Origin: a bacterium
Lineage (GTDB): Bacteria > Patescibacteriota > Minisyncoccia > UBA6257 > GWB1-50-10
Length of the DNA stretch: 64,000 bases
Assembly: GCA_030647415.1 (NCBI GenBank)
Contig: JAUSKB010000026.1
Location: 10,894-74,893 of the forward strand
Direction: 5' to 3'
Positions 3,447 to 40,062 of this stretch are shown piece after piece. The translations under genes and the position numbers were made by a program. A model generated the notes under the pieces. It saw only the letters and a list, made by a program, of their open reading frames with translations. It was not told the DNA's origin and searched no databases. The number at the start of each line of letters is the position of its first letter. Position 1 is the stretch's first letter.

Positions 3447-3540
3447 GAATCAGGTTCTCACCTATAATGCTCGTGCGACTCTTTTCGGCATTGTAACATA
3501 TATTATTACAGGCGCAAGTGAGGTTGTGGCAACCTGGTGC

Positions 3541-3568
3541 TTGACAAATAGAATAAGTGTGTTAAGAT
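3541..3568 (+). promoter_or_regulatory. Sigma70-like promoter: TTGACA, 16-nt spacer, TAAGAT.
   Basis: Consensus -35 hexamer with proper spacing. It faces the ORF-less structured region 3575-3890. Confidence 0.45.
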
Positions 3569-3574
3569 GCTATC

Positions 3575-11132: not shown

Positions 11133-14100
11133 CTATTTTGCGAGCCACAGACGGACCGGCATACCATCGAGCGTTGTTGCCGCCTCCGCGTCGAAGCGCC
11201 TCGGGACGCCGAACGTGAGCGCGGACGCCCGGACCTCGCGGCACACCAGCTTGGTGTCACGTGTAAGGATGAACCGGAGCTCCTCCGGCACCTCGACCGC
11301 GAGCGCGATCGGGTCCCGCGGCGAGAGCTTCGCGTCCTGCCGGAGCTCCTGAACCGCGCGGACGAACTCGCGGCGCCACCCCTCCTCTTTGAGTTCGTGC
11401 GTGATGACGGTGTCGAGCACCACCGGCTCCGAGATATTCGGATCAAAGACAATCTCCTTCACATTGACCTCATCCTTGAGGAGTTCGAGAAGTTCTGCTT
11501 TCCCCTGCAGTGTCCGGCCTTTCGCCGTTAGGCGAGATAATACCTGCCGGACCTTTATACCCGCCGTGGAACGAGCGGCGAGCCCCGCGCTCGCGAGCCG
11601 CCGCACCTCCGCCATGTCGGTGATGAGCTGTTTGTTGTCCCTCGGCTTCGCTCGGGCCGTTCGAGGCTCTGAGGAGCCCTCAGGCTCTCGAAGAGATGGT
11701 GAGCTTGTCGAACCATTTGTTGTTTGTCGTTTGTTTGCTGTCGGCCAGTCGGCAAGGTGCACCGAACGGTCAGCCTTCCCGGACACGAGCGATCGGTAGA
11801 GCGCCTCGGCGAAGAATGGGGTGAAGGGGGCGAGGAGCCGCGCAGTCGTCACGAGCGCGTACCCGAGGACCGCGGACGCTTCCTGGTGGTCAAGATCAGA
11901 GTCGGGATGCTGGAGCCGGCGGCGTGAACGCCGTATGAACCACCGTGAGAGGTCGCCCACGAACTCACCTACGACCCGCGCGGCGCCGCCGGGGTCGTAC
12001 GCCTCGAGCGCTCCGGTCGCCGCGGCAATCGTCTCGTCGAGCCGCGCGAGCACCCACCGGTCGAGCACATGTGTCGCTTTTGGTTGCTTGTTTGTTGTCC
12101 CTCGCTTCTGCTCGGGATGAACCATTTGTTTGTTTGTTTGTTGTCGGTTATTCCCATACGTCGCGAAGAACACAAACGAGTTGTAGAGGATACCGAACAG
12201 CTCCCGGCTCGCCGTCGCGAGGTCCCGTTCGTCGAACCGCTTCGGCTCCCCCGGCGGGTTCACGATAAAGAAGTACCAGCGGATGGCGTCCATACCGTGG
12301 GCATCGGCCGCGACCCAGGGGTCCACGGTGTTCCCCTTCGACTTCGACATCTTCTGCCCGTTCTTGTCGAGCACGTGACCCATCGAGATGACGTTCTTGA
12401 ATGGGGCCTTCTTGCCGAGGAGGGTCGCGACGGCGAGGAGGGTGTAGAACCAGCCCCGCGTCTGGTCTATGGCCTCCGAGATGTAATCCGCCGGGTAGGG
12501 TAGTTTCTGTATACTCGTCTCTTGTCTCTTGTCTCTGACCCGTTGTTGGTTGTCAGTCGTAGGTTGTCGGTTACCAAACGGGTAGTGCGCCTGCGCAAAC
12601 GGCATCGCACCGGAGTCGAACCAGACGTCTACTACGTCCGGGATGCGATGCATTGTCCCGTCCCGCTTGGCGGGATCTCGCGAAGCTCGACACTTCGCGC
12701 AGGGGTAGGTCACCTCGTCGATGTACGGTCGGTGAAGGTCGAGTTCTCCAAATCGGTTCCGCGGAAGCGGGATGGGTTCCACCTCACGCGCCTTGCCTTT
12801 CATCGGGTACGAGCCGGAGTCTGCAGCTTCCTGAGCCTCCGTATTCGTCCATCCATGCATCGCCGCCTCAAGCATCCAAAGTGGGTCGCCATGACTTACC
12901 ACCACGATGGTCTTGTTCTGGTGCATTCTATCCACTTCCGTAATGAAATCGTACATCCGGCGGCGGACGTCATTGCGCGACTCCCCGCCCTCCGGCGCCA
13001 CCGCGAATCCATCGGGGGCATTCTTACAAAGGAGGACGTGTTCATCCGCAGACCTGCCGTTCAGAATGCCACAACGAAGTTCCTGCAATCGCTCATCGGT
13101 TATAACCTTCGTAATCCCCGCCGCTGTAGCGATGAGCGTTGCAGTCTCTTGGGTGCGCTGTAGGGGCGAGGCGTAGACAGCATCGACACCCTCTTTCGCC
13201 AGCTTCAGAGCGGTTGCCTCTACATCGGACCGGCCTTTCAGGGTCAAATGGTAGCCTTTCTGTATCGGCAAGCAATCCAATAGTCGTTCAAGGTTGCTCT
13301 CCGCCTCGCCGTGCCGCACGAGGATATACCGGTTCGTTGATTTCGGAAGCTTCGCCGAAACCTCCGCGATGCTTCCCAACACCTCCGTGTGCGCGCACTG
13401 CTCGCACCGCCAGACCGGGAGCGGCGTCCCCCAGTACCGCGCGCGGGAAATTGCCCAGTCCTTCACCTCGCGGAGCCACTCGCCGAACCGGCCGTCCTTT
13501 AGATGCGCCGGCACCCAGTTGATTGTCTGGTTCGCCGCAATGAGCTTCTCGCGGAGCGAACTCATCCGGATGAACCAGGAGGTGCGGGCGTAGTAGATGA
13601 GCGGCGTCGAACAGCGCCAGCAGAACGGGTACTCGTGCGCGATGGTCTCGCGCTTCAGGAGCGAGCCCTGCTTTTCGAGCGCGGCGATGATTGCCTCCGT
13701 CGTCTCCTTTTCAATAACGGGGTCCTTGTGTTTCACCGTCCGTCCCGCGAACTCCGCCACATCCTTCGTGAACCGGGCCTGCTCGTCCACCGTATGGTGC
13801 TGGGGGAGCCCCACCTTCACGCCGAGCTGGTAGTCATCCTCGCCATACATAACCGCGGTGTGGACCACGCCCGTGCCGTCCGTCGTCGTCACGAACCCCG
13901 CCGGATAGACCTGGTACGCCGCCTCTGTCTGGAGCGGCTTCACATCGAAGAGCGGGTGATATCGCAAACCTTCAAGATAACTTCCTATAAAAGTCGAAAG
14001 CACTTTGTGGTAGGGGTTATCCTTGAACTTATGCTGAACCAGATTCGGATTAGCGCTTGGAACTCCGGGCATAGTCCATCGTTCATGAATCTCTTGAGCT

Positions 14101-14897
14101 AATATGACTTTCTCCTTCCCATTCTCGTGTTCGGCGATTACGTACTCAACAGCAGGTTTGACTGCGAGCGCTACGTTCCCCGGGAGTGTCCAGGGCGTCG
14201 TGGTCCACGAGAGGATGTAGGTCCGGTCGTCAGTTGTGAAGTTCCCGATTTTCTGGCCCTTTTCCAGTTTGAATTTCACATACACCGACTCATCATTCAC
14301 CTCCTTATATCCCTGCGCGAGCTCATGGGTGGAAAGCACCGTGCCGCACCGCGGGCACCACGGGACTACCTTGCGGCCCTCGAAGAGGAGCTTCTTGCGG
14401 TGAATCTCCTTCAGGATCCACCAGAGCGACTCCATGTATGTCGCGTCGTAGGTGACGTACGGGTGTTCCATGTCGAGCCAGAAACCCATCCGCTCGGTGA
14501 GCCGCTCCCACTCGTCCTTGTACTTCCACACCGAGGTGCGGCACGCCTCATTGAACTTCTCCACGCCGTACGTCTCGATGTCCCGCTTGGACTTCAAACC
14601 AAGCTGCTTCTCCACCTCGAGCTCCACGGGGAGACCGTGCGTGTCCCACCCGCCCTTCCGGGGCACGCGGAACCCCCGCATCGTCTTGTACCGGCAAATG
14701 ACGTCCTTGAAGGAGCGTGCGATGACATGGTGGATGCCGGGCCGGGCATTCGCGGTCGGTGGTCCCTCGTAGAACACGAAGGTCTTCTTCGCCGGGCGCT
14801 GGGCGATGGATTTCTGGAAAATCCCGTTCAGTTTCCAAAACTTGAGGACCTCCTCCTCGATCTTCGGGAGTGAGAACGACTCGAGATGCTTCAGCAT
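11133..14897 (-). CDS. ileS: Isoleucyl-tRNA synthetase carrying an embedded histidine-phosphatase (PGAM-like) domain and three low-complexity Q/T/N-rich insertions.
   Basis: The N-terminus MLKHLESFSLPKIEEEVLKFW and the KMSKS motif are collinear with IleRS. Residues ~555-745 (nt ~12776-13346) carry the RHG motif (YILVRHGEAESN) and a second His motif (VVVSHGDPLWML). The likely start is M38 of the track ORF (TTG/ATG, ~14897); the ORF extends to 15008. Confidence 0.88.
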   Translation of the reverse strand: MLKHLESFSLPKIEEEVLKFWKLNGIFQKSIAQRPAKKTFVFYEGPPTANARPGIHHVIARSFKDVICRYKTMRGFRVPRKGGWDTHGLPVELEVEKQLGLKSKRDIETYGVEKFNEACRTSVWKYKDEWERLTERMGFWLDMEHPYVTYDATYMESLWWILKEIHRKKLLFEGRKVVPWCPRCGTVLSTHELAQGYKEVNDESVYVKFKLEKGQKIGNFTTDDRTYILSWTTTPWTLPGNVALAVKPAVEYVIAEHENGKEKVILAQEIHERWTMPGVPSANPNLVQHKFKDNPYHKVLSTFIGSYLEGLRYHPLFDVKPLQTEAAYQVYPAGFVTTTDGTGVVHTAVMYGEDDYQLGVKVGLPQHHTVDEQARFTKDVAEFAGRTVKHKDPVIEKETTEAIIAALEKQGSLLKRETIAHEYPFCWRCSTPLIYYARTSWFIRMSSLREKLIAANQTINWVPAHLKDGRFGEWLREVKDWAISRARYWGTPLPVWRCEQCAHTEVLGSIAEVSAKLPKSTNRYILVRHGEAESNLERLLDCLPIQKGYHLTLKGRSDVEATALKLAKEGVDAVYASPLQRTQETATLIATAAGITKVITDERLQELRCGILNGRSADEHVLLCKNAPDGFAVAPEGGESRNDVRRRMYDFITEVDRMHQNKTIVVVSHGDPLWMLEAAMHGWTNTEAQEAADSGSYPMKGKAREVEPIPLPRNRFGELDLHRPYIDEVTYPCAKCRASRDPAKRDGTMHRIPDVVDVWFDSGAMPFAQAHYPFGNRQPTTDNQQRVRDKRQETSIQKLPYPADYISEAIDQTRGWFYTLLAVATLLGKKAPFKNVISMGHVLDKNGQKMSKSKGNTVDPWVAADAHGMDAIRWYFFIVNPPGEPKRFDERDLATASRELFGILYNSFVFFATYGNNRQQTNKQMVHPEQKRGTTNKQPKATHVLDRWVLARLDETIAAATGALEAYDPGGAARVVGEFVGDLSRWFIRRSRRRLQHPDSDLDHQEASAVLGYALVTTARLLAPFTPFFAEALYRSLVSGKADRSVHLADWPTANKRQTTNGSTSSPSLREPEGSSEPRTARAKPRDNKQLITDMAEVRRLASAGLAARSTAGIKVRQVLSRLTAKGRTLQGKAELLELLKDEVNVKEIVFDPNISEPVVLDTVITHELKEEGWRREFVRAVQELRQDAKLSPRDPIALAVEVPEELRFILTRDTKLVCREVRASALTFGVPRRFDAEAATTLDGMPVRLWLAK

Positions 14898-15029
14898 GAT
14901 GTATAGATATTCTACCGAAAGAATGTACCGAGAGCCACTGTGGCGGGCTAGCGCTTGACGCGCGATATAAAAAGTTGTAATAAGAGTACAGACGGATTTT
15001 CCCAACAAACCACAATATAAGGAGGGCGT

Positions 15030-15398
15030 ATGAGTAGACGAATGTGCTATAGCGTACTTCTGGGAGCTCTTGGAATCACGCTAGCCATCTCGCTTGCGGG
15101 GTGCGAACGGTGGAAAACATTCCGATTCTCATTCAGTAATCGGACGGTGAGTGCCATCGTCGCGAAAATTGACGGTGAGCGGCTCGGCGAGGTTGGGGCG
15201 GGCGAGACACGGCAGTTCGAGCACGAAATCAGAGTGCTTGAGTCATCGCCGACAGGGTACGGGCAAACGGACGAAGCGGAGGTGACGGCTTCCGCAGAAA
15301 ATCTGCGGACAGGGAAAGTGACGCGAGAGATGCGCCGACGCGTGTACCGCGACCGGGTGAACCACTTTGATATCAACACCTGGGACTTCTCGCCATAA
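15030..15398 (+). CDS. Putative lipoprotein (lipobox LAGC).
   Basis: RBS aaggagg. Signal peptide with LAGC lipobox. Confidence 0.6.
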   Translation: MSRRMCYSVLLGALGITLAISLAGCERWKTFRFSFSNRTVSAIVAKIDGERLGEVGAGETRQFEHEIRVLESSPTGYGQTDEAEVTASAENLRTGKVTREMRRRVYRDRVNHFDINTWDFSP

Positions 15399-15400
15399 AA

Positions 15401-15440
15401 TGAAAACGGCGCCGCTCATGCGGCGCCGAAACTGTTTCTT
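15401..15440. terminator. Bidirectional terminator hairpin ggcgccgc-tcat-gcggcgcc between convergent genes.
   Basis: Perfect 8-bp GC stem with A/T runs on both sides. Confidence 0.6.
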
Positions 15441-15867
15441 ATCCGGCTTTGGGGCCTCGGAAAACCCACCAACAAAGGATTGCGCCATAAAAGATTTCCA
15501 TGCAGGAATCTTTCCTTGAACCGGGCGCCTGCTGGGCATGCTGGGCAAGTGGAACGAGCAGGTCTCCATCCCGCTCGAACACGCTGTCCTTGATCGTATC
15601 CGTTCCCAACTCATTGAAGCTACGCAGAGCCTCCATGAATGTTGCTACGTTGATTGTGTTGGCTCCTAACTCGAGCTGTTCCCGGAAGAATGAGTACAAT
15701 ATGACAAAACCGTTCCTCCAAGGATTCGATTGGTCTTTGATACACGCGGTGATGGTGGGCTGTTCCGACATGAACCGCCTCACTCGGTTAGTGAGCTTCT
15801 CTCCGTCGGCAGAGGCATTCAAAAATACAGCGAACAACTCTCCCAACGCGTGTTTTGCCTTCTCCAT
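15439..15867 (-). CDS. Hypothetical protein (142 aa).
   Basis: RBS aggag upstream on the minus strand. Confidence 0.5.
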   Translation of the reverse strand: MEKAKHALGELFAVFLNASADGEKLTNRVRRFMSEQPTITACIKDQSNPWRNGFVILYSFFREQLELGANTINVATFMEALRSFNELGTDTIKDSVFERDGDLLVPLAQHAQQAPGSRKDSCMEIFYGAILCWWVFRGPKAG

Positions 15868-15978
15868 TCAACATCTCCTTGTGAAAAAGTGGATACGGGT
15901 GAATTATTTTCTCCGAACATCATAAGTCTTAAATATTAGATTTGTCAATAGCAGACTTCCGGCCGCAAAAACAAAATA

Positions 15979-16014
15979 GCCCGCCGCTCGCTACTACTCG
16001 CCACCCAGCAAAAA
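15979..16014. repeat. Direct repeat copy 1 (aaaatagcccgccgctcgctactactcgccacccagcaaaaa), flanking an AT-rich cassette.
   Basis: A near-identical copy lies at 16661-16700. Together they bracket the membrane-protein gene 16064..16546. Confidence 0.6.
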
Positions 16015-16063
16015 TGAGTTACTAAAATTGTAAGCCAACCCTAAAAAGATATATACTACTGTA

Positions 16064-16546
16064 ATGAAAAACTTACTTAAAGTTTCCTCGGCATTAGCAA
16101 TCGTGGCTGGTCTTGTGCTGGTCACGGGTAGTATTTGGGGCATTTATTTTACATACAGAAACATTGCTCAAGAGAAAATTGTAACTCCAGCTGATTCGTC
16201 CATCCCAGAAAAGCCGGTACGTGGACCTTTGACGCTTAAAGCGCAGGCTGACATTATCCGAGAGCATACGCTGAAAATGACTGGTGGAAAAACATATGCT
16301 GAAATGCCTCGACAAATTGTAAAACTAGAAGAAAACAACCAGCCGGTATTGGGCGATGACGGCAAACCCGTCATGGTGGCAAATACCGCGCGGGATATCT
16401 GGATCACGGCAACAACCCTAACCACAGCTCTTCATCTTGGCATCCTCACGTATGTATTTTCCGGCCTTATCCTATTGTTTGGCCTTATCTCTATCTGGAC
16501 GGGCATTGTGTTTTACACTTTGAGCCGAAGAGGAAACTTTGCATAA
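16064..16546 (+). CDS. Hypothetical membrane protein (160 aa) in an AT-rich segment.
   Basis: N-terminal TM helix and C-terminal hydrophobic stretch. Local GC is clearly lower than the flanks. Confidence 0.5.
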   Translation: MKNLLKVSSALAIVAGLVLVTGSIWGIYFTYRNIAQEKIVTPADSSIPEKPVRGPLTLKAQADIIREHTLKMTGGKTYAEMPRQIVKLEENNQPVLGDDGKPVMVANTARDIWITATTLTTALHLGILTYVFSGLILLFGLISIWTGIVFYTLSRRGNFA

Positions 16547-16660
16547 ATTTTCGACCGGAATTTTTGGCGGTGATCATTCTGGCATTGTTACAATATTTTC
16601 AAGTAATTTGAATTGGGTGTGGGGGAATTCCGCCATTCCTTTGCAAAAAATAGAGGCCAG

Positions 16661-16700
16661 TCCCGCCGCCGCTCGCTACCACTCGCCACCCAGCAAAAAA
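16661..16700. repeat. Direct repeat copy 2 (aaaatagaggccagtcccgccgccgctcgctaccactcgccacccagcaaaaaa), followed by a terminator hairpin.
   Basis: Matches copy 1 over ~35-45 nt. Followed by caccgc-agttcta-gcggtg plus TTTTT. Confidence 0.6.
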
Positions 16701-16752
16701 CACCGCAGTTCTACCGCGGTGTTTTTCTGTGACTCGTGGCGGAGGATTTCGC

Positions 16753-16992
16753 TTAAACCAATCGCTTATTTCTGAATGCAAAGCCGGAGCTGGATTTTAA
16801 ATATCGCTCAAAATCATAGGCCATCATCTTCTCCATGAAAGCTCCGTACCAGACAATTTGGTATGGGGCTTTTGCTCTCGTCGACTTCGTTTCTCCAGAA
16901 TTATGCTCCTTCAGCCTGCTTCTGAGGTCGGCAGTCACGCCTATGTAGTAGCTCTCGTCCACTTTGCTCCGCAAGATGTAAACGTACCACAT
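16753..16992 (-). CDS. GIY-YIG nuclease superfamily protein (UPF0213-like).
   Basis: MWYVYILRSKVDESYYIGVTADLRSRLKEHNSG is the canonical GIY-YIG motif. Start taken at the M just before YVYIL. Confidence 0.7.
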   Translation of the reverse strand: MWYVYILRSKVDESYYIGVTADLRSRLKEHNSGETKSTRAKAPYQIVWYGAFMEKMMAYDFERYLKSSSGFAFRNKRLV

Positions 16993-17131
16993 GGTTGAAT
17001 TATACTCCCCCACTTCGGTGAACCTACGCGGGGTCCACCACCCCACGTCGCTAAAGCTCTGCGGGGTCCACCACTTCGCATTTCGCAGTGCTACGCACCG
17101 CGAAGCCCCCTCCGGTAAGGAGGGGGCGAAG

Positions 17132-17461
17132 TGGTGGAGGCGGAGGGATTGAACCCTCTTCCAGGGAATTCACCGAAGGCACTCTACAAGCTTAGTTCTT
17201 GCGAACGAAGGTGCTCCGCTAGTTTAATCCCGTGAAGCGCGAAGCGGCCCCACAAGACGAGTCTCGAATATTACACCGGCTGATTCCTACGAGACATGAG
17301 AGGCCGATGCCGGCATTACGCGAATGCGAACGCCGGAACTGCAACCGTTCGGTTGGCAGATATAGTGTTTGACCGGTTGTATCCGCCAGAGGCGGACGGG
17401 CGAGACGATCAGCTCGGCCTGCAACCCTCAATGGATGTTCCTTGTCGATGCGTGCGCCCCC
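17132..17461 (-). ncRNA. ssrA: tmRNA (SsrA), ~330 nt. Predicted tag peptide ANRTVAVPAFAFA-stop.
   Basis: 5' GGGGGCG pairs with 3' CGCCUCC-ACCA including G3:U70. 3' end GGAAGAGGGUUCAAUCCCUCCGCCUCCACCA resembles E. coli GGACGCGGGUUCAACUCCCGCCAGCUCCACCA. The mRNA-like region reads GCC AAC CGA ACG GUU GCA GUU CCG GCG UUC GCA UUC GCG UAA, with resume codon ~nt 105. smpB lies immediately upstream. Confidence 0.8.
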
Positions 17462-17495
17462 ATATTGATATAACAAATAATCTACGACCGACAAC

Positions 17496-17960
17496 CTACA
17501 ACGGACCACTCGACGGACTCGCCCTCCGGATCTCGCGGTCGGTCTCGCGTTTCCTGATGACGTCGCGCTTATCCCCTTTCTTCCTGCTCCGGGCGAGACC
17601 GAGCGCGACCTTCAGCTTCCCGTTCCGAGAGTATAGTCGCAGTGGAATGATTGTCAAACCGCGTTCCTTCGTCGAACCGATGAGTGCGGCAATCTCCTTT
17701 TTATGTAGGAGGAGCCGCCGGGACCGCTTCTGGTCATGCTTTTCCTGCCCCGGGGGGAGGTTCTTCGGTTGGTACGGCGGGATGTCGAGGTTCAGAAGCC
17801 AGAGCTCGGCGCCGCGGACGATGGCGTGCGACCCGCCAAGGTTCGCCCGGCCCAACGCAACAGACTTAACCTCGAACCCCTTGAGCTCGATGCCCGCCTC
17901 GATGGTCTCGAGGATTTCGTAGTCGAAGGTGGCCCTCCGGTTGACGGCGAGGTCTGACAT
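17496..17960 (-). CDS. smpB: SsrA-binding protein SmpB.
   Basis: NRRATFDYEILETIEAGIELKGFEVKS... and the C-terminal basic tail (KKGDKRDVIRKRE) match SmpB throughout. Confidence 0.9.
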   Translation of the reverse strand: MSDLAVNRRATFDYEILETIEAGIELKGFEVKSVALGRANLGGSHAIVRGAELWLLNLDIPPYQPKNLPPGQEKHDQKRSRRLLLHKKEIAALIGSTKERGLTIIPLRLYSRNGKLKVALGLARSRKKGDKRDVIRKRETDREIRRASPSSGPL

Positions 17961-18007
17961 TGATAGGTTCAGGGTAGCACACTACTTCACTAATTGAGGA
18001 GGAGAAT

Positions 18008-18406
18008 ATGGGACAGATATATCCGATGGGACAGACGGTCGCGCAGTTCGCCGCGAACCAGCTCACTAGTCTTTTACGGGCGGGAAAAATACTTAACCCG
18101 TTTGAGAAAGAGGAGGCACTTAATTGTCTTGAGAGCATTTCATTGCTCAAAAGAAACGGCGACCAGCGAATGTGTGTCATCTGCAAGACGCATAAACAAA
18201 CGGGGCCGGCCTTGCCCCTCATGCCGCTATGTCATTCGCACCTGCACGTCATCATCGATGCGAGCGCCCGTACGGATATTCGTCCGGAAGATTCGACCTG
18301 CCATTGCGGACAATGCACCTTATTGTACTTCTCGGGCTGCGAGAGAAAAATTCCGGTGTGGGAAGGGCAGTGTTACAGCTACCTTGAGAAGATTCTGTGC
18401 TTGTAG
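18008..18406 (+). CDS. Cys/His-rich hypothetical protein (132 aa), zinc-finger-like.
   Basis: RBS gaggagg. Multiple C/H pairs (CVICKTHK, CHSHLH, CHCGQC). Confidence 0.5.
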   Translation: MGQIYPMGQTVAQFAANQLTSLLRAGKILNPFEKEEALNCLESISLLKRNGDQRMCVICKTHKQTGPALPLMPLCHSHLHVIIDASARTDIRPEDSTCHCGQCTLLYFSGCERKIPVWEGQCYSYLEKILCL

Positions 18407-18416
18407 CTCGGTAGTG

Positions 18417-18447
18417 GACGGACTCGCGCGAGTCCGTCATTTTTTTT
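18417..18447 (+). terminator. Rho-independent terminator gacggactcgcg-cgagtccgtc followed by TTTTTTTT.
   Basis: Perfect stem plus U-run. Confidence 0.7.
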
Positions 18448-18475
18448 CCCTCTTGCCTGTGCTTTAATAAGAACC

Positions 18476-20068
18476 ATGCGAGCACAAATCCGCGCCGCGA
18501 TAGCCGACCTCGTCCCGCCCGGGACGGCAATCGAAGTGGTCCCGGCGGACCACGAAGACATGGGTGACTACTCGACCCGCGTGGCGTTCACACTCTCAAA
18601 AGTGCTCGGGAGGCCGCCGGTTGCGATTGCGGAGGATATCGCGGCGGCGCTCAAGAAAAAACATCCGGACCTTGTCCGTGACGCCGTCGCCGCCACGCCG
18701 GGGTTCCTGAACATCACGCTCACGGACGCCGCACTCCAGAGCGTCGTCACTGAAGTACTTGAGAAGGGCAGTGGTTACGGCCCCAATAAGCTCCCCGAGG
18801 CCGAGCGGGAGCACATACAGGTGGAGTACATCTCCGCGAACCCGACCGGACCCCTCACGCTCGCAAACGGCCGCGGCGGATTCCTCGGGGACGTCATCTC
18901 AAACGCGCTCATGGCCGTGGGGCACATGGTGGAGCGCGAGTACTACGTGAATGACACTGGGAATCAGATCGAAACTCTCGGGAAATCCATACTCGCGGCC
19001 GCGGGGAAGATTCCGCCGGAAGAGACCTTCTACAAGGGCGACTACGTCCGCATCTGGGCGGAGGCGCATTTGAAGGATGTGGAGCGGCTCGCGAGCGACC
19101 CCCACGAGCTGGGCCGCACGGCGGCGCGGGACTTCCTTACGGTCATGAAATCCGTCGTGGAGGGCAAGGCGGGTATCCTCTTCGACCGGTACACATCGGA
19201 ATATGACGACATCCGCGCGAAGGGGTACCCAGAAAAGGCGCTCGCCCTATTCCGCATGAAAGGCGTGGCGTACGAGGCGGATGGCACCGTCTGGCTCAAG
19301 ACCACCGACTTCGGCGACGATAAGGACCGCGTGCTCGTCATGAAAACAGGCGAGCCGACCTACTTCCTTGCGGATGCCGGCCACTACATCGAGACCGTGG
19401 AGCGCGGATTCACGTGGAAGATTAACATCCTCGGGCCGGACCACTACGGGTACGTGGCGCGCATCCAGGCCGCCGCGAAGCTTGTGGAGCTCCAAAAATC
19501 CGAGGTGCTTATCACACAGGCGGTGCGGCTCATTGAGAACGGGGTGGAGCGGAAGATGTCGAAACGCAGTGGAACCTTTGTGGCGTTCAACGAACTCGTG
19601 GAGGAGGTACTGCCCGACGCCGCGCGATTCTTCTTCCTCTCGGTGGCGCCCGAATCACACATGGATTTCGACCTCACGCTCGCGAAGGAGCGGTCCAACA
19701 AGAACCCCGTCTTCTACGCCCAGTATGCCTACGTCCGCGCGGTGAAGGTGCTCGAGAGGTTCGGGGGTGAACCAAATCAAACGACGCCGCTCACCCCCCT
19801 CACCGGCGCGAAGGACCGCCGCCTCATGCGCCTCATCGCCGACTACCCCGCTGCCGTCGAGGATACGGCGCGCGATTACCGCGTCCACCGCCTCACGCAG
19901 TACGCCTCGGCGCTCGCTAAGGGTCTCCACGACTGGTACGAGACGGAGCACGTAGTGGGAGAGGCGCCGGACGTCGCCCGTGCGCGCGCGGCGCTCCTTG
20001 CCGCCGTGAAAATCACCTTCGAGAACCTCTTCTCCGTCATCGGCATCACCGCCCCAAGCGAGATGTGA
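18476..20068 (+). CDS. argS: Arginyl-tRNA synthetase.
   Basis: Class I signature SANPTGPLTLANGRGG, MSKRSG motif and C-terminal DALR anticodon-binding region. ~530 aa. Confidence 0.9.
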   Translation: MRAQIRAAIADLVPPGTAIEVVPADHEDMGDYSTRVAFTLSKVLGRPPVAIAEDIAAALKKKHPDLVRDAVAATPGFLNITLTDAALQSVVTEVLEKGSGYGPNKLPEAEREHIQVEYISANPTGPLTLANGRGGFLGDVISNALMAVGHMVEREYYVNDTGNQIETLGKSILAAAGKIPPEETFYKGDYVRIWAEAHLKDVERLASDPHELGRTAARDFLTVMKSVVEGKAGILFDRYTSEYDDIRAKGYPEKALALFRMKGVAYEADGTVWLKTTDFGDDKDRVLVMKTGEPTYFLADAGHYIETVERGFTWKINILGPDHYGYVARIQAAAKLVELQKSEVLITQAVRLIENGVERKMSKRSGTFVAFNELVEEVLPDAARFFFLSVAPESHMDFDLTLAKERSNKNPVFYAQYAYVRAVKVLERFGGEPNQTTPLTPLTGAKDRRLMRLIADYPAAVEDTARDYRVHRLTQYASALAKGLHDWYETEHVVGEAPDVARARAALLAAVKITFENLFSVIGITAPSEM

Positions 20069-20082: not shown

Positions 20083-20126
20083 AAGAACATTCTAACCCCG
20101 CCAAGGCGGGGTTAGAATGTTCTTGC
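20083..20126. repeat. Long perfect hairpin (20-bp stem) aagaacattctaaccccgcc-aagg-ggcggggttagaatgttctt, downstream of argS.
   Basis: Read directly. Shares the accccgcc/ggcggggt core with the hairpins at 2051 and 4403. No U-run follows. Confidence 0.6.
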
Positions 20127-20287
20127 TTACCCGTACTCACTTGACACACAAACTGTACAGCAGTACAAGGGGGGTAGCGTGGGGCGAACCCGCATTCACA
20201 AAAAAACCGCCGTACCGCGCCTTCGGGCATCCGGTAGCGGCACGCGTTCCTCGGAACGCGGTTTACTTCGGCTTCGGCCGAGAAAGG

Positions 20288-21421
20288 ATGGTTGATATGA
20301 ACCGGTACACACCGCTAAAGAGCGAGTTAGCAGCATATGGAAACCCACAGGAAACGGTCTGGCTCGCACAAACGTTAAAACAAATCTCCGATGCCAAACA
20401 GCAAATCGGGACTGTTGAAATATTCTTTCAACACACGGTACGCGTCATATGTGAAACCAACAATGCCAAGCGCCAAACGGAACTTGGCATCTACGCTGAC
20501 AATATCATCGGGTGGCTTTGGAGGGCCATCGAGGAGGCGGAATTCAACCCGTTCCTGGGCAGCGACGGAACCAGGTGGTGGTGGACTACCGCCAACGGTG
20601 AGTACGACAAGCGAGTGAACCCGGCGAGACGCGAGGCTCATAGAAAAAAGGTGGAGTGTGCCATGCGGCTCGAGAAATGGCTCTTCCCGTTCCGATATGC
20701 CAAAGGTCCGAAAACGGCGCTGTCGAAAGCGCACCTGAACATCCTCCGCACAATAGCGGAACAGTTCTACGGCACCGATGACGACACGGAGGCGAAATGC
20801 TTGTTCGACTTCCTCCGCACGTGCTACCTCACGGGCCATGACCAGGACTGCGACGAGGTGCTTACCGCACTTCGGACCGCGCGAGGACCCCGGGATGCCG
20901 AGCGGGACATCCGATTCGCGATTGACGCGATGGATACGCGCATCGGCGAAACGTCGGAAATTGCCCTGCTCTTGATGCACCGCAGGGCAAAAAATCTCGA
21001 GAGATGCCGGCAGAGGCGGGAGGTCAGGTTATCCAGTACCACGTATCCGCTCTCGCGTGCGGCATTCGACCTGGTGGAGCTCACCGCGGAACAAATCTCC
21101 TCGTCCGACACCGCTATTCGTGACCTCTGCGAGATGCTAGGAAGCCCGGTGGAAAATGTGTGCCACACTCTTGAGCCGGTCGGAAAACGGACAATTTCGC
21201 TTGCATACGTCTCTGTGAACGAGGTGGTCGTTTCTTTCACCAAGATACAGCAGTCATACGATATGGACGAGCCATACCGGGAATTCGACAAGGCGTTCTG
21301 TATCGTGGGGGAATGGCGCAGAAAGCACCCGGACGCGCCTCGGGTGAGGTTCCAGTTGAAAGTAAAAGCGGGAGGAGCACGTGTCCAAGAGTTGGCGTCG
21401 CCGCCAACTCGCACGCGGTGA
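20288..21421 (+). CDS. Hypothetical protein (~377 aa).
   Basis: RBS aaagga then ATG at 20288. The preceding part of the track ORF spans the argS terminator region. No family assigned. Confidence 0.5.
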   Translation: MVDMNRYTPLKSELAAYGNPQETVWLAQTLKQISDAKQQIGTVEIFFQHTVRVICETNNAKRQTELGIYADNIIGWLWRAIEEAEFNPFLGSDGTRWWWTTANGEYDKRVNPARREAHRKKVECAMRLEKWLFPFRYAKGPKTALSKAHLNILRTIAEQFYGTDDDTEAKCLFDFLRTCYLTGHDQDCDEVLTALRTARGPRDAERDIRFAIDAMDTRIGETSEIALLLMHRRAKNLERCRQRREVRLSSTTYPLSRAAFDLVELTAEQISSSDTAIRDLCEMLGSPVENVCHTLEPVGKRTISLAYVSVNEVVVSFTKIQQSYDMDEPYREFDKAFCIVGEWRRKHPDAPRVRFQLKVKAGGARVQELASPPTRTR

Positions 21422-21430
21422 GTATACAAA

Positions 21431-21455
21431 GACCGGGCTCGTCCCGGTCTTTTTT
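21431..21455 (+). terminator. Rho-independent terminator gaccgggc-tcgt-cccggtc followed by TTTTTT.
   Basis: Read directly. Confidence 0.7.
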
Positions 21456-21545
21456 ATCGCGCCATAACATGCGCATCATTGACTTTCTGACGTTTGGTGG
21501 TATCGTACCCATCGGTATCATTTCATTCACATATTGGAGTTGCTA

Positions 21546-21883
21546 TGAACGTCAACGAAGAGATCCGTGCCGCCATCAAGGGATTTGTCGCGGTCGCGAA
21601 GAAGGTGCGAATCTCGTGTAGTAAGGACGGCGGAATCACCACCACTACCCTCTCTGGGGCGGAGGCGGTCAAGCGCATCGAAGAGCTCGTCGAGAAAGCT
21701 GAGATCTCGCGAATTAAAATCATGAGCTCAAAGAAAGAGATTGCCAGCTTCCCATTCATCGGGGGCACCGTCGCCGCGGCGGCGGTCGCCATCTTCGCCC
21801 TTCCCCTCGCGCTACTCGGCATGGCGGCGCTCATCCTAGGCGAATGCGACGTCGAAATCGAGGCAAAAGAGAAACAGCGGTAG
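21546..21883 (+). CDS. Hypothetical protein with a C-terminal TM anchor (112 aa).
   Basis: RBS ggag. Hydrophobic C-terminal segment. Confidence 0.45.
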
Positions 21884-22011
21884 CTCTGTATTCATTCACC
21901 GCCCCCTCCAAGGGGCGGCTTTGTTTCCGGAACCAATTTGACTATTAATACCTTTTATATTAGAATATACATACGATATTTCACAATTCATAATCAAATT
22001 TTGGAGGGCAC

Positions 22012-23223
22012 ATGCCCCAGAAAAAAGTGATTGTTATCGGCACTGGCCACCTTGCCGACGTGACCGAGGACAAGCTCGCTGAGGGTGCGAAGTTCGAGGT
22101 TATACGAATCAAGTCGAAGACCTTCCAATTCGACGAGGATACGGACATCCAGGAAGAATCGCTCCAGTATGCAAAAGAGCGACTCGTCGAGGCGGGTATC
22201 CAGAAAGCGTTTGTGGTGTGTCTCGTAGACAGCACGGATGGCCTGAATGTGCACGTCCTCCTCGCTGTGGCGGAACTTCGTCCGGACATCCCCACATTCG
22301 TGTCAATCATCGACGAGACAATCTATCACAACGTGTCTGGCTTCGACCACAATGTGGTCGTCGTGAATCCTGCTAAGATCGCCGAGCCAGCGTTCATCAG
22401 CGCGCTCGAGGAGCGACTCCCGAAGCAACGCTCGTTTATGGACCAAGTCGTCCAGCGAACGCTCGAGTTGCCGCCGCCAAAAAAGTCCCGCGCCGCGGTC
22501 TTCATGACCGCGCTCATCCTCGTCATGATGGGGATTGATATCCTCTTCTTCATGATGACGGAGGGGCTCTCGTTCACAAAGGCCTACTACTACTTCGCGA
22601 GCGAGGTGACCTCGTTCTCGTTCGGCGACGTGATGGTGAAGCAGTACGACCCGTGGATCGAGAATACCCGCACCACGCTACTGCTCATGACCTTCGCAAT
22701 CGTCCCTATTGGCATCGGCATCATCGCCGGCACCTGGTGGGCGCATCTGAACGAACTCCGAACCACCGGCAAGCGCCGGTACCGGATGCGAGACCACATC
22801 GTTGTGTGCGGACTCGGAAATCTCGGGTACCGCATCGCGGAAACTCTCTTCGAAAAAGGGCTGCGGGTCCTCGTGATCGAGCGCGAGCTCGAGACGCCGA
22901 ACGTGGAGCTCGCACGAGCGCGGGGCATCCCGGTCATGATCGCGGACGCGACGGCGCGCTACGCGCTCACGAACGCAAACGTAGGGAGGGCCGCCGCGAT
23001 CATATCCGCGGTGAATGACGATATGCAGTCGCTCAAGATCGGTCTCGGCGCGCGGTGGTTCAATCCGAATCTCCGCATCGTGCTCCGCATCTTCGACCGC
23101 GGCACCGCGAACGCAATCTGCGAGCGCTTCGGCATCCAGTTCGCCCTGTCGATGTCCGATATGGCGTCAGACAAGATCGTGGGCGACATTCTCCAGCTCG
23201 CAGGCACGCCGCGAGCGAATTGA
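22012..23223 (+). CDS. Potassium-channel family protein with two TrkA-N/RCK NAD-binding domains.
   Basis: N-terminal Rossmann VIVIGTGHLA. Central TM region with a pore-like TSFSFGDV. Second Rossmann HIVVCGLGNLGYRIA. Confidence 0.65.
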   Translation: MPQKKVIVIGTGHLADVTEDKLAEGAKFEVIRIKSKTFQFDEDTDIQEESLQYAKERLVEAGIQKAFVVCLVDSTDGLNVHVLLAVAELRPDIPTFVSIIDETIYHNVSGFDHNVVVVNPAKIAEPAFISALEERLPKQRSFMDQVVQRTLELPPPKKSRAAVFMTALILVMMGIDILFFMMTEGLSFTKAYYYFASEVTSFSFGDVMVKQYDPWIENTRTTLLLMTFAIVPIGIGIIAGTWWAHLNELRTTGKRRYRMRDHIVVCGLGNLGYRIAETLFEKGLRVLVIERELETPNVELARARGIPVMIADATARYALTNANVGRAAAIISAVNDDMQSLKIGLGARWFNPNLRIVLRIFDRGTANAICERFGIQFALSMSDMASDKIVGDILQLAGTPRAN

Positions 23224-23240
23224 ATAACAGTAAACAAAAA

Positions 23241-23272
23241 GCCCCGGAATCATTCCGGGGCTTACTTTTTTC
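23241..23272. terminator. Bidirectional terminator gccccggaat-c-attccggggc flanked by A/T runs.
   Basis: Sits between the convergent gene ends 23223 and 23277. Confidence 0.7.
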
Positions 23273-23276
23273 TGCT

Positions 23277-23894
23277 TTAGAAGGTCACGCCAATACCAGC
23301 GTAGACCTTCACAAATTCTGTCTGCGTCGGGCTCCCATACGCGAACACCTTCGCGTACAGGTTTCCATACGTGGCCTTCAAAACCAGCCCCAGGTCAATC
23401 GCGGTTTCCGCGCCAGGCAGAAAATCGCGATACACCTGCTGGGAGAGGCCCAGGTCCCAATGCGGTGCGACGGCATACAGCCATTCGCCCCATTGGTAGA
23501 AACATTCCTGGTACCCCGCTACCCCGAAGGACGGTTGGATCAGGGTAATGAAGGAGAAGTCCCCAGATCTCCCCCAGAAATATATCTCGGGAGAAATACC
23601 TTGGTAAGTCGGGCCACCGATGTATCCCAAGGCCCCAGTGACGGTAAAACTGTCTCCCCCGAACGTCTTGCCAATAAAGCCGGTGACGGCTTTTTCAGCG
23701 TCAAAATTATACCGGACGTCGAGAAGAATCGGGCTTTCGGGTGTCATCCCGTACATGTACCACGGAATGATATCGAACCGTCCGTGGATCCCGTTCACGC
23801 GCGTCTCCTTGAAGTACAGAGACGCATCATGCTGTGACAACGCGGCTACGCTCGTGAGCATGAGCACCGTGAGTAAAGTTAATTTTTTCTTCAA
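23277..23894 (-). CDS. Putative outer-membrane beta-barrel protein with a signal peptide and C-terminal Phe.
   Basis: N-terminal signal peptide (MKKKLTLLTVLMLTSVAALS). Gly/Tyr/aromatic-rich alternating pattern. The C-terminus YAGIGVTF matches the OMP beta-signal. Confidence 0.5.
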   Translation of the reverse strand: MKKKLTLLTVLMLTSVAALSQHDASLYFKETRVNGIHGRFDIIPWYMYGMTPESPILLDVRYNFDAEKAVTGFIGKTFGGDSFTVTGALGYIGGPTYQGISPEIYFWGRSGDFSFITLIQPSFGVAGYQECFYQWGEWLYAVAPHWDLGLSQQVYRDFLPGAETAIDLGLVLKATYGNLYAKVFAYGSPTQTEFVKVYAGIGVTF

Positions 23895-24068
23895 GATCCC
23901 TCCTCTTTTTTTGAATTCAAACGTTTGCTGGATAAATTATAGCAATATAAAAACTAGATGTCAATATCTCGTGCGCAAATTCAAATATACGATATTATTG
24001 ACTTATTTATTAATAAGTTTTATTATATAATCAGTTTTTTATTCACACCACATATACAGGAGGAAGGC

Positions 24069-25055: not shown

Positions 25056-25064
25056 AAGTACAGA

Positions 25065-25096
25065 AACCCGCTCGATATGAGCGGGTTTGCTTTTTC
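25065..25096 (+). terminator. Rho-independent terminator aaacccgctc-gatat-gagcgggttt followed by a T-run.
   Basis: Read directly. Confidence 0.7.
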
Positions 25097-25216
25097 GGGT
25101 ATATTTGACAAAAAATGACTTCCCTGCTATAAGAACAATAGCTTTTTCCAATGGAGCAGACTAGCTCACCAGCTAATCGCGCTCCCTATACATTCCACTA
25201 ATAAAAGGAGGTACCG

Positions 25217-26887: not shown

Positions 26888-26898
26888 GGGGGCAACCC

Positions 26899-27651: not shown

Positions 27652-27819
27652 AAGTAGTAAGCAGTAAAGAAACAGGCCCCCGGCACCATGCTGGGGGTTT
27701 TTGCTTTCTGATCTTTCTAGGCATGCCTTAAAAGGCAAACGAAATTGACAAAATCACCACTTTCTGCTAGTGTACTCCCAGTATATTCATAACAGAAAAA
27801 CAACCTAAAGGAGTAAGAA

Positions 27820-29385: not shown

Positions 29386-29406
29386 CTAACAAAAAGGAGG
29401 CAGTAC

Positions 29407-30366: not shown

Positions 30367-30394
30367 ACAATCACACTAACAGAAAGGAATAGTA

Positions 30395-31216: not shown

Positions 31217-31288
31217 CAGTAGTAACACCTGGTGGGCGGAGAAACACTCCCCCACCAGATTCATTTTTCACTTTTAAGGGAGGTTGTA

Positions 31289-38978: not shown

Positions 38979-39028
38979 CAGTACCCGATCCCGTTTACAT
39001 TTCGGGGCTCATCGGGTAGCATGGGTTC

Positions 39029-39529
39029 ATTCAGTATCGGATCAACAACTACATCACCGCACCGGAGGTCCGGGTGGTCGGCGCCGACAATGAGAGCTTG
39101 GGCGTCCTCCCGATCGCGGAAGCTCTCCAGCTCGCCCGGGACCAGGGTCTGGACCTCATTGAGGTCGCCCCGAACGCTAAGCCGCCCGTCGCCCGGATTA
39201 TCGCCTACGATAAGTTCCGGTACCAAAAGGAGAAGGAGTTCAAGAAGCAGCGGCTTGCCCAGCGTGTGAAAGACCTGAAGCAGGTCCGCATCACGGTGCG
39301 AATGGGAAAGAATGACCTTGAGGTCCGGCTGAAGAAGGTTGAGGAGTTCCTCACCAACGGGCACCGCGTCGAGATCATGATCGCGCTCCGCGGGCGCGAG
39401 AAGGGAAATAAGGAGTGGGGCTTGCAGAAACTCGCCGCCTTCCGTACACTCATCAAGACTCCATTCACGGTGGTGATGCCGCCGCGGTGGGGCGGCCGGG
39501 GGTTCATCACCCAGATAGCTAAAAAATAA
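39029..39529 (+). CDS. infC: Translation initiation factor IF-3, with a probable non-AUG (AUU) start.
   Basis: INNYITAPEVRVVGADNESLGVLPIAEALQLARDQGLDLIEV... matches IF-3 N- and C-domains. The frame opens after a TAG at 39017 with no in-frame ATG before the conserved N-terminus. ATT at 39029 parallels the E. coli infC AUU start. Confidence 0.75.
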   Translation: MQYRINNYITAPEVRVVGADNESLGVLPIAEALQLARDQGLDLIEVAPNAKPPVARIIAYDKFRYQKEKEFKKQRLAQRVKDLKQVRITVRMGKNDLEVRLKKVEEFLTNGHRVEIMIALRGREKGNKEWGLQKLAAFRTLIKTPFTVVMPPRWGGRGFITQIAKK

Positions 39530-39708
39530 TGCAAAAAAGCTACTCAACTCGCCTGAAGATTACCGGCCGCGGCAAGATTCGCCGCCGGTCGACCACGCTC
39601 GGACATTCCCGGATGAACAAGACGGGCGCCCAGATTCGACATAAGCGGCGGCTCCGGAAGCTCGCCGGCATCCACCGCGAGGAACTCTCCAGGAATCTCA
39701 CAAATTAA
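39528..39708 (+). CDS. rpmI: 50S ribosomal protein L35.
   Basis: Translation MQKSYSTRLKITGRGKIRRRSTTLGHSRMNKTGAQIRHKRRLRKLAGIHREELSRNLTN. Overlaps the infC stop (taATG). Below the ORF-track length cutoff. Confidence 0.8.
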
Positions 39709-39717
39709 CGAATACGT

Positions 39718-40062
39718 ATGACCCGAGTCAAACGAGGTACGAGTGCCACTAAAAAACGCCGTAGCGTCCTGAAACAGGCGAAGGGGTTCCGTTGGGGCAG
39801 GAAGTCAAAGGAACGCGCCGCAAAGGAGGCGCTCCTCCACTCACAGTCCCGCGCCTTCAAGGGGCGGAAGGAGAAGAAGCGCGTCTACCGCGCGCTCTGG
39901 AACGTCCGCTTGAACGCCGCAGTCCGCGAGCACGGCATGACGTACAGCACCTTTATTGCCGCGCTGAAGAAAAAAGGGGTGAAGCTCGACCGGAAGGTGC
40001 TCTCCGAGCTCGCCGTGAAACATCCGGACATATTCAAGCGCATCGTCGAATTCGTCCGCTAG
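39718..40062 (+). CDS. rplT: 50S ribosomal protein L20.
   Basis: MTRVKRGTSATKKRRSVLKQAKGFRWGRKS...AALKKKGVKLDRKVLSELAV matches L20. Confidence 0.9.
   Translation: MTRVKRGTSATKKRRSVLKQAKGFRWGRKSKERAAKEALLHSQSRAFKGRKEKKRVYRALWNVRLNAAVREHGMTYSTFIAALKKKGVKLDRKVLSELAVKHPDIFKRIVEFVR

Follow-up and report, generated by a model that had tools for sequence, protein, structure and literature searches.

What is the origin of the DNA between the transfer-messenger RNA (tmRNA) gene ssrA and the isoleucyl-tRNA synthetase gene ileS in a patescibacterial genome, where a low-GC membrane-protein gene stands between two direct repeats? The question was addressed in a stretch of 64 kb (contig JAUSKB010000026.1 of assembly GCA_030647415.1, positions 10,894 to 74,893), hereafter the window. 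A first-pass annotation had taken the repeats as a sign of integration at the tmRNA 3' end, leaving either the remnant of an integrated element or a cassette exchanged by site-specific recombination. The present analysis assigns the repeats to one arm of a larger palindrome, here named element E, and the locus is probably a scar: the decayed remnant of a mobile element at a tmRNA hot spot, an ordinary relic with two unrelated selfish modules in the ssrA 3' flank.

In the direct repeat, the part that aligns without gaps spans 34 nt (15981-16014 and 16666-16699, 33/34 identical). A weaker gapped extension upstream of the core (GCAAAAA..AAAATAG) lengthens the units to about 50 nt, and the two together account for the direct repeats of about 40-50 nt that had been described as bracketing the membrane-protein gene. 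The repeat pattern was matched twice in the window and had 0 matches in 100 shuffles. No further copies of the 34-nt repeat were found within the 64 kb, and its genome-wide spread was judged from this window with its two copies.

Exact matches to a 23-nt core of the repeat, CTCGCTACNACTCGCCACCCAGC, were found in 20 loci (one genome per GTDB species), where about 0.07 matches are estimated to be expected by chance in 596 Gb. The loci come from metagenome-assembled genomes (MAGs) titled Taylor-, Azam-, Magasanik-, Vogel- and Nomurabacteria, Saccharibacteria, Paceibacterota and other Parcubacteria or Patescibacteria, with one MAG titled only 'bacterium' and one 'Chloroflexi bacterium', and range in GC content from 0.36 to 0.62. 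In those loci the 23-nt core is one arm within a longer conserved element, E, which we define as an imperfect palindrome of 270-330 nt. It begins with a variable left flank, an outer stem in which AAGGAAGCCAGCCCGCCGCC pairs with GGCGGCGGGCTTGGCCTCT, and the 5' arm GCTCGCTACCACTCGCC ACCCAGCAAAAAAGTTTTC. These are followed by a loop with invariant TTTGCGCGCGCC, a 3' arm holding its own small hairpin, and a T-run, and the element closes with a second hairpin, GCAAGAACACGGCGGAA...TTCCGCCGTGTTCTTGC, and a tail ending GGAATTTTTGGCGGCGGC. Between one and three copies per genome occur in the loci seen.

Thirteen copies of E, aligned over some 260 core columns, are on average 87% identical in pairwise comparison (range 74-98%). 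The predicted structure comprises 67 pairs, with 97.3% of cells paired, and 14 pairs change on both sides, compared with 5.2+-1.5 in column shuffles (0/500 reach the observed number) and 1-4 pairs in slid-partner controls. Because the stems covary and the loops are invariant, it is likely to be the folded form of E that matters. The consensus folds to -78.2 kcal/mol on the plus strand and -85.4 kcal/mol on the opposite strand; both strands thus fold about equally well, which leaves the choice between RNA and DNA form, and between strands, undecided. An initial reading of E as an RNA taken from the plus strand, on account of G-U pairs, was rejected, as the opposite strand folds as well or better. 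The recombinases of E loci are 41-45% identical to each other in amino acids and 68-74% in nucleotides, and cargo DNA is 65-82% identical in nucleotides where alignable, so that E is more conserved than its neighbours.

No match to E at gathering score was obtained in 14 loci with the 4227 covariance models of Rfam, and one full E copy searched at E-values of up to 10 gave only far-sub-threshold microRNA-type hairpin models over E, none of them credible. The phage and plasmid collections held no match to E. In IMG/VR, one 4.4-kb contig (L113) was recovered with the E hairpin at both ends, and two other patterns had 0 matches there. No description of E was found in the literature searched here.

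A profile built from nine full E copies gave three matches in the window with nhmmer, all partial: 16700-16615 on the minus strand (E-value 6.8e-15, profile positions 122-209), 16653-16756 on the plus strand (1.9e-12) and 15981-16019 on the plus strand (2.4e-08). Repeat copy 2 falls in the first of these, termed fragment A, where 16662-16700 agrees with the canonical 5' arm of E at 39/39 positions; copy 1, in fragment B, agrees with it at 33/34. Judged by this alignment, the 34-nt direct repeat is the most conserved arm of E. The repeats match an internal part of E and not the tmRNA 3' end, and the suggestion that they are att-like sites is therefore not upheld.

Fragment A (86 nt) corresponds on the minus strand to the 3' half of E: an arm, the 3' strand of the outer stem, the T-run and the 5' half of the terminal hairpin, in whose loop it breaks off. 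Positions 16621-16670 match the reverse complement of positions 227-276 of locus L011 at 49/50, a match that spans the outer-stem strand, the T-run and the first hairpin half. The inner arm segment of fragment A is the exact complement of the 5'-arm segment and replaces the usual 3'-arm hairpin, as in a flipped isomer, and the same flipped junction is present in L017. The latter locus has two E copies, 3380-3600 (-) and 6050-6400 (+), with central loops in opposite orientations and different arm segments. The flipped junction and the either-way central loop of L017 show that E exists as flip/flop isomers, presumably generated by recombination or templated repair between its inverted arms.

Copy 1 is shortened by two deletions relative to copy 2 and lacks the hairpin part, and fragment B, which contains it, is placed between two divergent promoter-like sites, 15948-15919 (-) and 16028-16057 (+). 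Along the tmRNA strand the order is tmRNA, GIY-YIG module, fragment A, a short tail piece of E, the antisense membrane-protein gene and fragment B. No complete E is present in the window; only the part from about profile position 122 to 209 and the 5' arm remain, and the central loop, the opposite arm, the 3' half of the hairpin and the left flank are absent from the window fragments. Likewise, no canonical inverted pair of E with tails inward and multi-kb cargo was found, the two window copies being direct, 685 nt apart and separated by one 483-nt gene. Two Logan contigs of SRR13727527 are identical to the window (L002 to 15426-16691 and L001 to 17045-18604) and end inside repeat copy 2 (16691) and inside a tandem repeat in the GIY-YIG leader (17045), respectively. 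Such ends hint at other copies of these sequences in the same sample.

Elsewhere, E is found around cargo. Inverted E pairs with tails inward enclose 3.7-4.6 kb in L006, L007 and L009, the same arrangement is found in L060, and the 4.4-kb IMG/VR contig L113 has the E hairpin in inverted orientation at its two ends. The cargo of L007, L006 and L009 was identified with Pfam as restriction-modification (R-M) genes, including a HaeII-type endonuclease, a C5 methylase with Vsr, a LexA-N6/N4 methylase fusion and another DNA methylase; translations read by eye indicate that the cargo of L113 and L060 also holds methyltransferase and controller-like genes. The pairs of L006, L007 and L009 show no target-site duplication at their outer ends. 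For the L060 island, the relatives with an empty site are too diverged for a comparison that would define its boundaries or a duplication. As a separate observation, several E-bounded islands include in their cargo a complete LexA-like repressor fused to an N6/N4 DNA methyltransferase (L006 4511-5953, L022 1763-3418 and 5751-7613, and L060 2420-3946), an unusual architecture for an R-M methylase. Pfam assigns DNA-binding, S24 peptidase and methylase domains to the L006 protein, whose N-terminal sequence recurs in the proteins of L022 and L060.

Several E loci also carry a large serine recombinase. The L011 protein has Resolvase, Recombinase and Zn-ribbon domains and is encoded at the outer, left-flank side of E, and homologues (41-45% identical) are likewise placed in L007, L012 and L020. 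The best NCBIfam matches of the L011 recombinase were XisF, CcrB and CcrA, all far below cut-offs. Each recombinase gene is bounded by its own terminal inverted repeats of 124-160 nt, 88-100% complementary, forming a module (L011 288-1962; L012 138-1831; L007 5639-7365; L020 3766-5413). In L011 the right-hand terminal repeat lies inside the 3' part of the recombinase gene; the module occurs in both orientations, and L010 retains a solo repeat beside tRNA-Gln. On the side away from E, the module abuts the 3' end of tmRNA in L011, of tRNA-Val in L007 and of tRNA-Gln in L012, and in L020, E comes directly after the module, on whose other side lies a diverged inverted piece of the E hairpin. The left flank of E can be read as resembling an inverted pseudo-3'-end of a tRNA or tmRNA (hereafter t(m)RNA): in L006 it faces the real tRNA-Gln 3' end across a short hairpin, and in L012 the tRNA-Gln 3' end and the E left flank make up a palindrome with the recombinase module in its middle. 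A reconstruction of attP and attB sites for the modules was attempted and abandoned, as the junction dinucleotides are in inverted orientation and a simple circle-integration model does not fit.

Two loci have E downstream of ssrA in the orientation of the window fragment. The order in L011 is argS, smpB, tmRNA, the serine recombinase (whose open reading frame, ORF, runs into the tmRNA 3' end) and E. In L060, smpB and tmRNA are followed 53 nt on by a 5'-truncated E, cargo of 3.9 kb with a LexA-like/methyltransferase fusion among its genes (translation read), an inverted full E, and infC.

The surroundings of ssrA were compared across 36 related smpB loci in which the sequence continues for 1.5 kb or more past the tmRNA 3' end. 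In 23 of the 36, the tmRNA is followed by infC, rplT and a Nudix-like gene (translation read), starting 26-265 nt after the tmRNA in most, and several of the other loci have insertions at this point. Together, the adjacency of infC-rplT in the majority and the insertions in others mark the tmRNA 3' flank as an insertion hot spot of this group, where E-bounded islands are among the DNA that inserts. In most relatives where it could be detected, the order is ileS, argS, smpB, tmRNA, with infC next; the window and its relatives compare as follows: REARRANGEMENT. In the window, ileS is on the tmRNA side and infC-rplT lies 22 kb off, past argS, with an accessory cluster of 19 kb (20117-38046: TrkA-N, radical-SAM-like, OmpA-like, ABC ATPase, AAA ATPase and Nramp genes) between argS and infC. 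Window genes at 20-27 kb had no matches when sought downstream of the tmRNA in relatives; the inversion is supported instead by the location of infC-rplT at 39-40 kb. The position of ileS on the tmRNA side and the displacement of infC-rplT would be explained if the argS-smpB-ssrA block was inverted, as it appears to have been, with one breakpoint in the tmRNA 3' flank and 15009-17131 as the junction. The gene-order blocks concerned are 17132-20068 (argS-smpB-ssrA) and 39026-41076. Since infC-rplT follows ssrA in 23/36 relatives, the DNA between tmRNA and ileS is, by this comparison, non-ancestral. The synteny comparison that had been proposed as a check on an ancestral arrangement thus came out in favour of change, and conserved gene order is broken by inserted DNA, as in a genomic island. 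No recombinase or integrase was found with Pfam and NCBIfam among the ORFs tested in 15030-18406.

The membrane-protein gene encodes 160 aa with hydrophobic 19-residue windows at both ends (starts 2-13 and 119-136). Its GC content is 0.45 and its GC content at third codon positions (GC3) is 0.44, compared with a GC3 of 0.75-0.82 in ileS, smpB and argS, in agreement with its first description as an AT-rich membrane-protein gene; the gene looks compositionally foreign and imported. The best 120 of its 1261 homologues are 69-83% identical, the named ones coming from Patescibacteria lineages, and the protein is more conserved than SmpB, for which the best match among metagenome loci is 63%. No Pfam, NCBIfam or PADLOC match was obtained. 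Ten other loci with homologues (L023-L027 and L108-L112, from five independent look-ups) almost always adjoin DsbB, thioredoxin and DsbD-like genes, with multicopper oxidase, CopC/cupredoxin and P-type copper ATPase genes as further neighbours, which suggests a role in envelope thiol or copper handling. Element E was sought in five of the homologue loci and not found, and in all ten it is only within the ORF that the nucleotide sequence resembles that of the window. The possibility that this gene is a normal E-bounded cassette was therefore rejected: the ten loci of five homologues are without E and similarity ends at the ORF. The occurrence of homologues in clusters without E marks this as a mobile accessory gene that is not usual E cargo.

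The GIY-YIG gene proposed for this region was confirmed by Pfam (PF01541, E-value 2.4e-17, 63.4 bits against a cut-off of 22.6, residues 1-70), and the YVY...YIG motifs are visible in the 79-aa protein. By its domain it is a member of the GIY-YIG nuclease superfamily, with a predicted nuclease activity. The leader between this gene and the tmRNA contains a tandem repeat of 33 nt (17008-17040 and 17041-17073) that was absent from the first-pass annotation and constitutes a duplication within the leader. As RNA the leader folds to -87.7 kcal/mol (z=-7.65 vs shuffles). A TATAAT 6 nt ahead of the ATG suggests a leaderless mRNA for the gene.

The three closest GIY-YIG homologues with context examined (65-68% aa identity) follow the tmRNA in L115 and L114 and tRNA-Ala in L116. 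The modules occupy 16753-17131 in the window, 2835-3297 in L115, about 2790-3240 in L114 and 2830-3282 in L116, and share a spacer plan: the t(m)RNA end, CTTCG, a variable hairpin, CTTCGCGGTGCG, a variable stretch, GAAGTGGTGGA, a CCCCGC...GTGGGG hairpin and then TATAAT about 6 nt before the ATG. GAAGTGGTGGA is the inverted complement of the tmRNA 3' end plus CTTCG, and in the tRNA-Ala locus the block at its position is altered to match the tRNA 3' end. The three tmRNA loci do not agree in the order of the genes that surround the module, and the GIY-YIG protein is 67-68% identical between window, L114 and L115, compared with 48-50% for SmpB. The genomes of L114 and L115, with the module at a tmRNA 3' flank, are without E. 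The GIY-YIG gene and its leader are thus a separate module, recurrent at t(m)RNA 3' flanks and outside the repeat-bounded unit, and the gene does not belong to a repeat-bounded cassette as had been proposed. The tandem repeat 17008-17073 was also considered as the left flank of E; this was rejected, as the same leader accompanies the GIY-YIG gene in the E-free L114 and L115.

The varied gene orders and the higher conservation of GIY-YIG relative to SmpB fit a site-specific selfish gene, and a host function is also possible. The module is accordingly treated as a candidate homing element specific to t(m)RNA flanks. Free-standing GIY-YIG homing genes include seg of T4-like phages, and small UPF0213/YhbQ-type GIY-YIG proteins are a further point of comparison. 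The 79-aa protein resembles free-standing GIY-YIG homing genes in consisting of the bare GIY-YIG domain (Pfam) and in its single type of site, t(m)RNA 3' flanks, amid varied gene orders; unlike characterised homing enzymes it has no DNA-binding extension, and homing is here proposed as a candidate function only. The module was found neither in Rfam nor in the phage and plasmid collections, and no description of a tmRNA-linked GIY-YIG module was found in the literature searched here.

Between the convergent membrane-protein and GIY-YIG genes lies a hairpin flanked by T and A runs, with 14-nt arms that are 93% complementary, which the first-pass annotation did not contain. We read it from the sequence as a bidirectional terminator; a terminator scan did not list it. 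The tmRNA was recovered with ARAGORN and Rfam at identical coordinates, 34 nt after smpB and as first described; the ARAGORN tag is ANRTVAVPAFAFA, and the Rfam match to RF00023 covers the full model (1-374) at 70.4 bits against a gathering score of 47. The acceptor stem, read from the sequence, is GGGGGCG/CGCCUCC with G3:U70. With a tmRNA above the curated threshold and an SmpB gene close upstream (PF01668), the locus has the features of the tmRNA-SmpB trans-translation system. The GC hairpin reported 3' of the tmRNA corresponds to the inverted repeat 17096-17113 / 17119-17136. The features of the locus are collected in Table 1.

Table 1. Features of the ssrA flank and the displaced infC-rplT pair (window positions).
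Feature	Position	Strand	Basis
Fragment A of E, holds repeat copy 2	16615..16700	-	nhmmer E-value 6.8e-15; 49/50, 39/39
Fragment B of E, holds repeat copy 1	15965..16014	+	5' arm 33/34 after a degraded A-run/TAG stretch like that of copy 2
Tail-end piece of E, 15 nt, CGGAATTTTTGGCGG, orientation opposite to fragment A	16556..16570	+	15/15 to L007 copy, E-value 0.003, weak alone
Membrane-protein gene between the two repeat copies	16064..16546	+	GC3 0.44; 1261 homologues
T/A-run-flanked hairpin between convergent membrane-protein and GIY-YIG genes	16696..16726	.	inverted repeat; overlaps copy 2 A-run
Free-standing GIY-YIG nuclease gene (domain assignment), 79 aa	16753..16992	-	Pfam PF01541; homologue contexts
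GIY-YIG module leader: CTTCG, hairpin, CTTCGCGGTGCG, GAAGTGGTGGA, tandem repeat, TATAAT	16993..17131	-	repeat search, RNA fold
Terminator-type GC hairpin; 5' arm takes in last tmRNA bases CACCA	17096..17136	-	inverted repeat; within leader fold
tmRNA (ssrA), tag ANRTVAVPAFAFA	17132..17461	-	ARAGORN; Rfam RF00023, 70.4 bits
smpB	17496..17960	-	Pfam PF01668, E-value 3.7e-47
infC and rplT, usually right after ssrA	39026..40059	+	tblastn, 55-68% identity to tmRNA-downstream genes of relatives
ORFan, 142 aa, within non-ancestral stretch	15439..15867	-	protein search, no family match

A plausible course of events can be drawn from these observations. An E-bounded island would formerly have lain downstream of ssrA, as in L011 and L060. 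The inverted arms of E would have recombined with each other and flipped its interior, most of E would then have been deleted, and the foreign low-GC membrane-protein gene would have come to lie between the arm copies that remained. The argS-smpB-ssrA block would have been inverted, parting ssrA from infC. Two histories fit the pieces, the second arm copy being either a duplication or the remnant of a second element copy. An inverted E pair could have lost its cargo, with one copy flipped or partly gene-converted, which the opposite-oriented 15-nt tail piece favours; alternatively, one chimeric junction could have been duplicated locally around the incoming gene, which is favoured by the A-run/TAG shared upstream of both copies. 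With no recombinase nearby and no intact E, the unit in the window is most likely immobile today.

Several points weigh against this reading. No recombinase was found among the ORFs tested at 15.0-18.4 kb and no intact E in the window, and mobility is a historical inference; moreover, the serine recombinases are associated with E islands by neighbourhood and are candidates for moving them. The two arm copies are direct and not canonically inverted, and the part of the genome inspected amounts to 64 kb. Copies in distant genomes share 98-100% identity with fragment A, which is exactly the most conserved part of E and could have been retained for a function and not as a passive relic. As both strands fold alike, E itself may act as RNA, as folded single-stranded DNA or as duplex DNA. 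The earlier proposal of an integrated-element remnant at the tmRNA therefore stands as regards a mobile family and a non-ancestral flank, and fails as regards the repeats, which are not att sites, and a recombinase, which was not found in the tested ORFs.

A retained function would be that of a cis-acting site or RNA part, such as an operator or a shaper of transcript ends, with the copies regulating or insulating the membrane-protein gene. This would account for the fact that the 34-39 nt retained are the most invariant stretch of E, that copy 1 stands exactly between the two divergent promoter-like sites and that copy 2 abuts the T/A-run hairpin and provides its A-run; structure-preserving covariation across the whole of E, and cores that are more conserved than recombinase genes or cargo, point in the same direction. 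We nonetheless consider it unlikely, as the window fragments are without their pairing partners and the conserved structure cannot form, the repeat unit itself has no hairpin, the ten loci with membrane-protein homologues are without the repeat sequence and only two copies occur in 64 kb. It is quite improbable that the repeats are attL/attR-like sites of an exchangeable small cassette, consisting of the membrane-protein gene with or without the GIY-YIG gene and inserted site-specifically 3' of the tmRNA. Direct repeats do surround a compositionally foreign gene beside a tmRNA, E-type elements associate with serine recombinases elsewhere, and direct repeats are the classical boundaries of islands in t(m)RNA genes (PMC4383910). 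Set against this, the repeat bears no resemblance to the 3' end of the tmRNA and is instead an internal arm of E, the nearby ORFs tested include no integrase or recombinase, the GIY-YIG gene lies outside the repeats in a different recurrent module, and element copies in intact islands are inverted, not direct. The ten homologue loci of the membrane-protein gene again lack the repeats, with nucleotide similarity that stops at the ORF ends, which disagrees with its earlier interpretation as an exchanged cassette. Insertion of the membrane-protein gene with a long target duplication, the arm copies being a single duplicated E fragment, appears very improbable. For R-M genes, insertions that create long and variable target duplications have been documented (PMC2853133), and both copies here carry the same chimeric junction, an A-run/TAG followed by 5'-arm sequence; yet copy 1 differs by two deletions and lacks the hairpin part, and the opposite-oriented tail piece at 16556-16570 would be left unexplained.

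The decayed-remnant reading was further compared with known systems. Genomic islands at tRNA and tmRNA genes of the Islander/TIGER type (PMC4383910, PMC12424338) classically combine an integrase, usually a tyrosine recombinase, with a direct repeat that is a displaced 3' fragment of the target. The window resembles them in having foreign DNA right 3' of ssrA in a region variable among relatives, as do L011, L007 and L012 in having a recombinase gene at a t(m)RNA 3' end. It differs in that its repeat is not tmRNA-derived and no recombinase was found among the ORFs tested nearby, and the related loci differ in their large serine recombinase and inverted pseudo-3'-end. A direct repeat of a displaced 3' fragment was not found, the only tmRNA-3'-like sequences (17008-17073) being inverted and in the GIY-YIG leader. 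Transposon-like R-M units with long inverted repeats, and units of R-M genes and an integrase in tRNA genes, have been described by Furuta, Abe and Kobayashi (2010, PMC2853133). The R-M sets of L006, L007, L009, L060 and L113 are similar in lying between inverted repeats with no transposase inside, some of them at tRNA genes. In the published cases the inverted repeats are 26-65 bp long and case-specific (PMC2853133), whereas those of E are 270-330 nt, internally palindromic, covarying and common to many lineages of the Candidate Phyla Radiation (CPR) with varied cargo. Further differences are that no short target duplication is seen at E pairs and that E is linked to serine recombinases and t(m)RNA ends.

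Elements of the SCCmec Ccr or XisF type share with E modular cargo and a fixed chromosomal site beside a conserved RNA-related gene; unlike them, the E-associated recombinases miss the family cut-offs and have their own 124-160-nt terminal inverted repeats in both orientations, and no attB/attP pair with a common central dinucleotide can be reconstructed. Integron attC sites are similar to E in being imperfect palindromes with covarying stems and sequence-conserved loops or bulges that separate exchangeable modules. E, however, is several times longer and far more conserved, its copies are inverted around cargo, the genes tested or read next to it include no IntI, and the window repeat is half an arm. 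The window repeat has no internal inverted repeat, and no tyrosine recombinase was found among the nearby ORFs tested, the 64 kb not having been scanned for IntI. The likeness of E to attC sites and Ccr cassettes is best regarded as a functional analogy only. A bolder proposal, which we regard as doubtful, is that E is a folded single-stranded or cruciform substrate of a serine-recombinase-driven, integron-like cassette system of Patescibacteria, docking at t(m)RNA 3' ends and shuffling defence and accessory modules across phylum-level lineages, with the membrane-protein gene as a captured cassette; in a variant of it, E would encode a new structured RNA needed by the islands.

Miniature inverted-repeat transposable elements (MITEs) and repeats such as Correia, BOX, RUP and repetitive extragenic palindromes (REP) with their mosaic elements (BIME) are, like E, non-coding, palindromic, often truncated and intergenic, and metagenome assemblies of the source sample break at E. 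They differ from E in copy number and spread, E having 1-3 copies per genome across phylum-level lineages and not being amplified in one, and in the links of E to t(m)RNA 3' ends, R-M cargo and serine recombinases. Overall, the E family and the GIY-YIG module appear to be hitherto undescribed forms of known kinds of mobile DNA. The locus itself is an unremarkable relic and an example of selfish DNA build-up and rearrangement at the tmRNA flank of a reduced CPR genome. As horizontal gene movement in CPR bacteria is poorly understood, a common boundary element would help in mapping it, and E, as a recognisable one, offers a possible handle on the CPR mobile gene pool. For the GIY-YIG module that recurs at t(m)RNA 3' flanks, site-specific homing is a hypothesis open to testing.

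Two further features were noted. For the 142-aa ORF within the non-ancestral stretch, the only match among 5.8 billion proteins was its own entry, with no Pfam, NCBIfam or PADLOC family, and it could be a lineage-specific gene or no gene at all; the promoter-like site at 15948-15919 that precedes it is a good one. Beyond this ORF, ileS (11133-15008, minus strand) encodes an isoleucyl-tRNA synthetase of about 1250-1290 aa with a complete His_Phos_1 domain (residues 526-690, Pfam E-value 6.5e-34) inside the class I catalytic domain.

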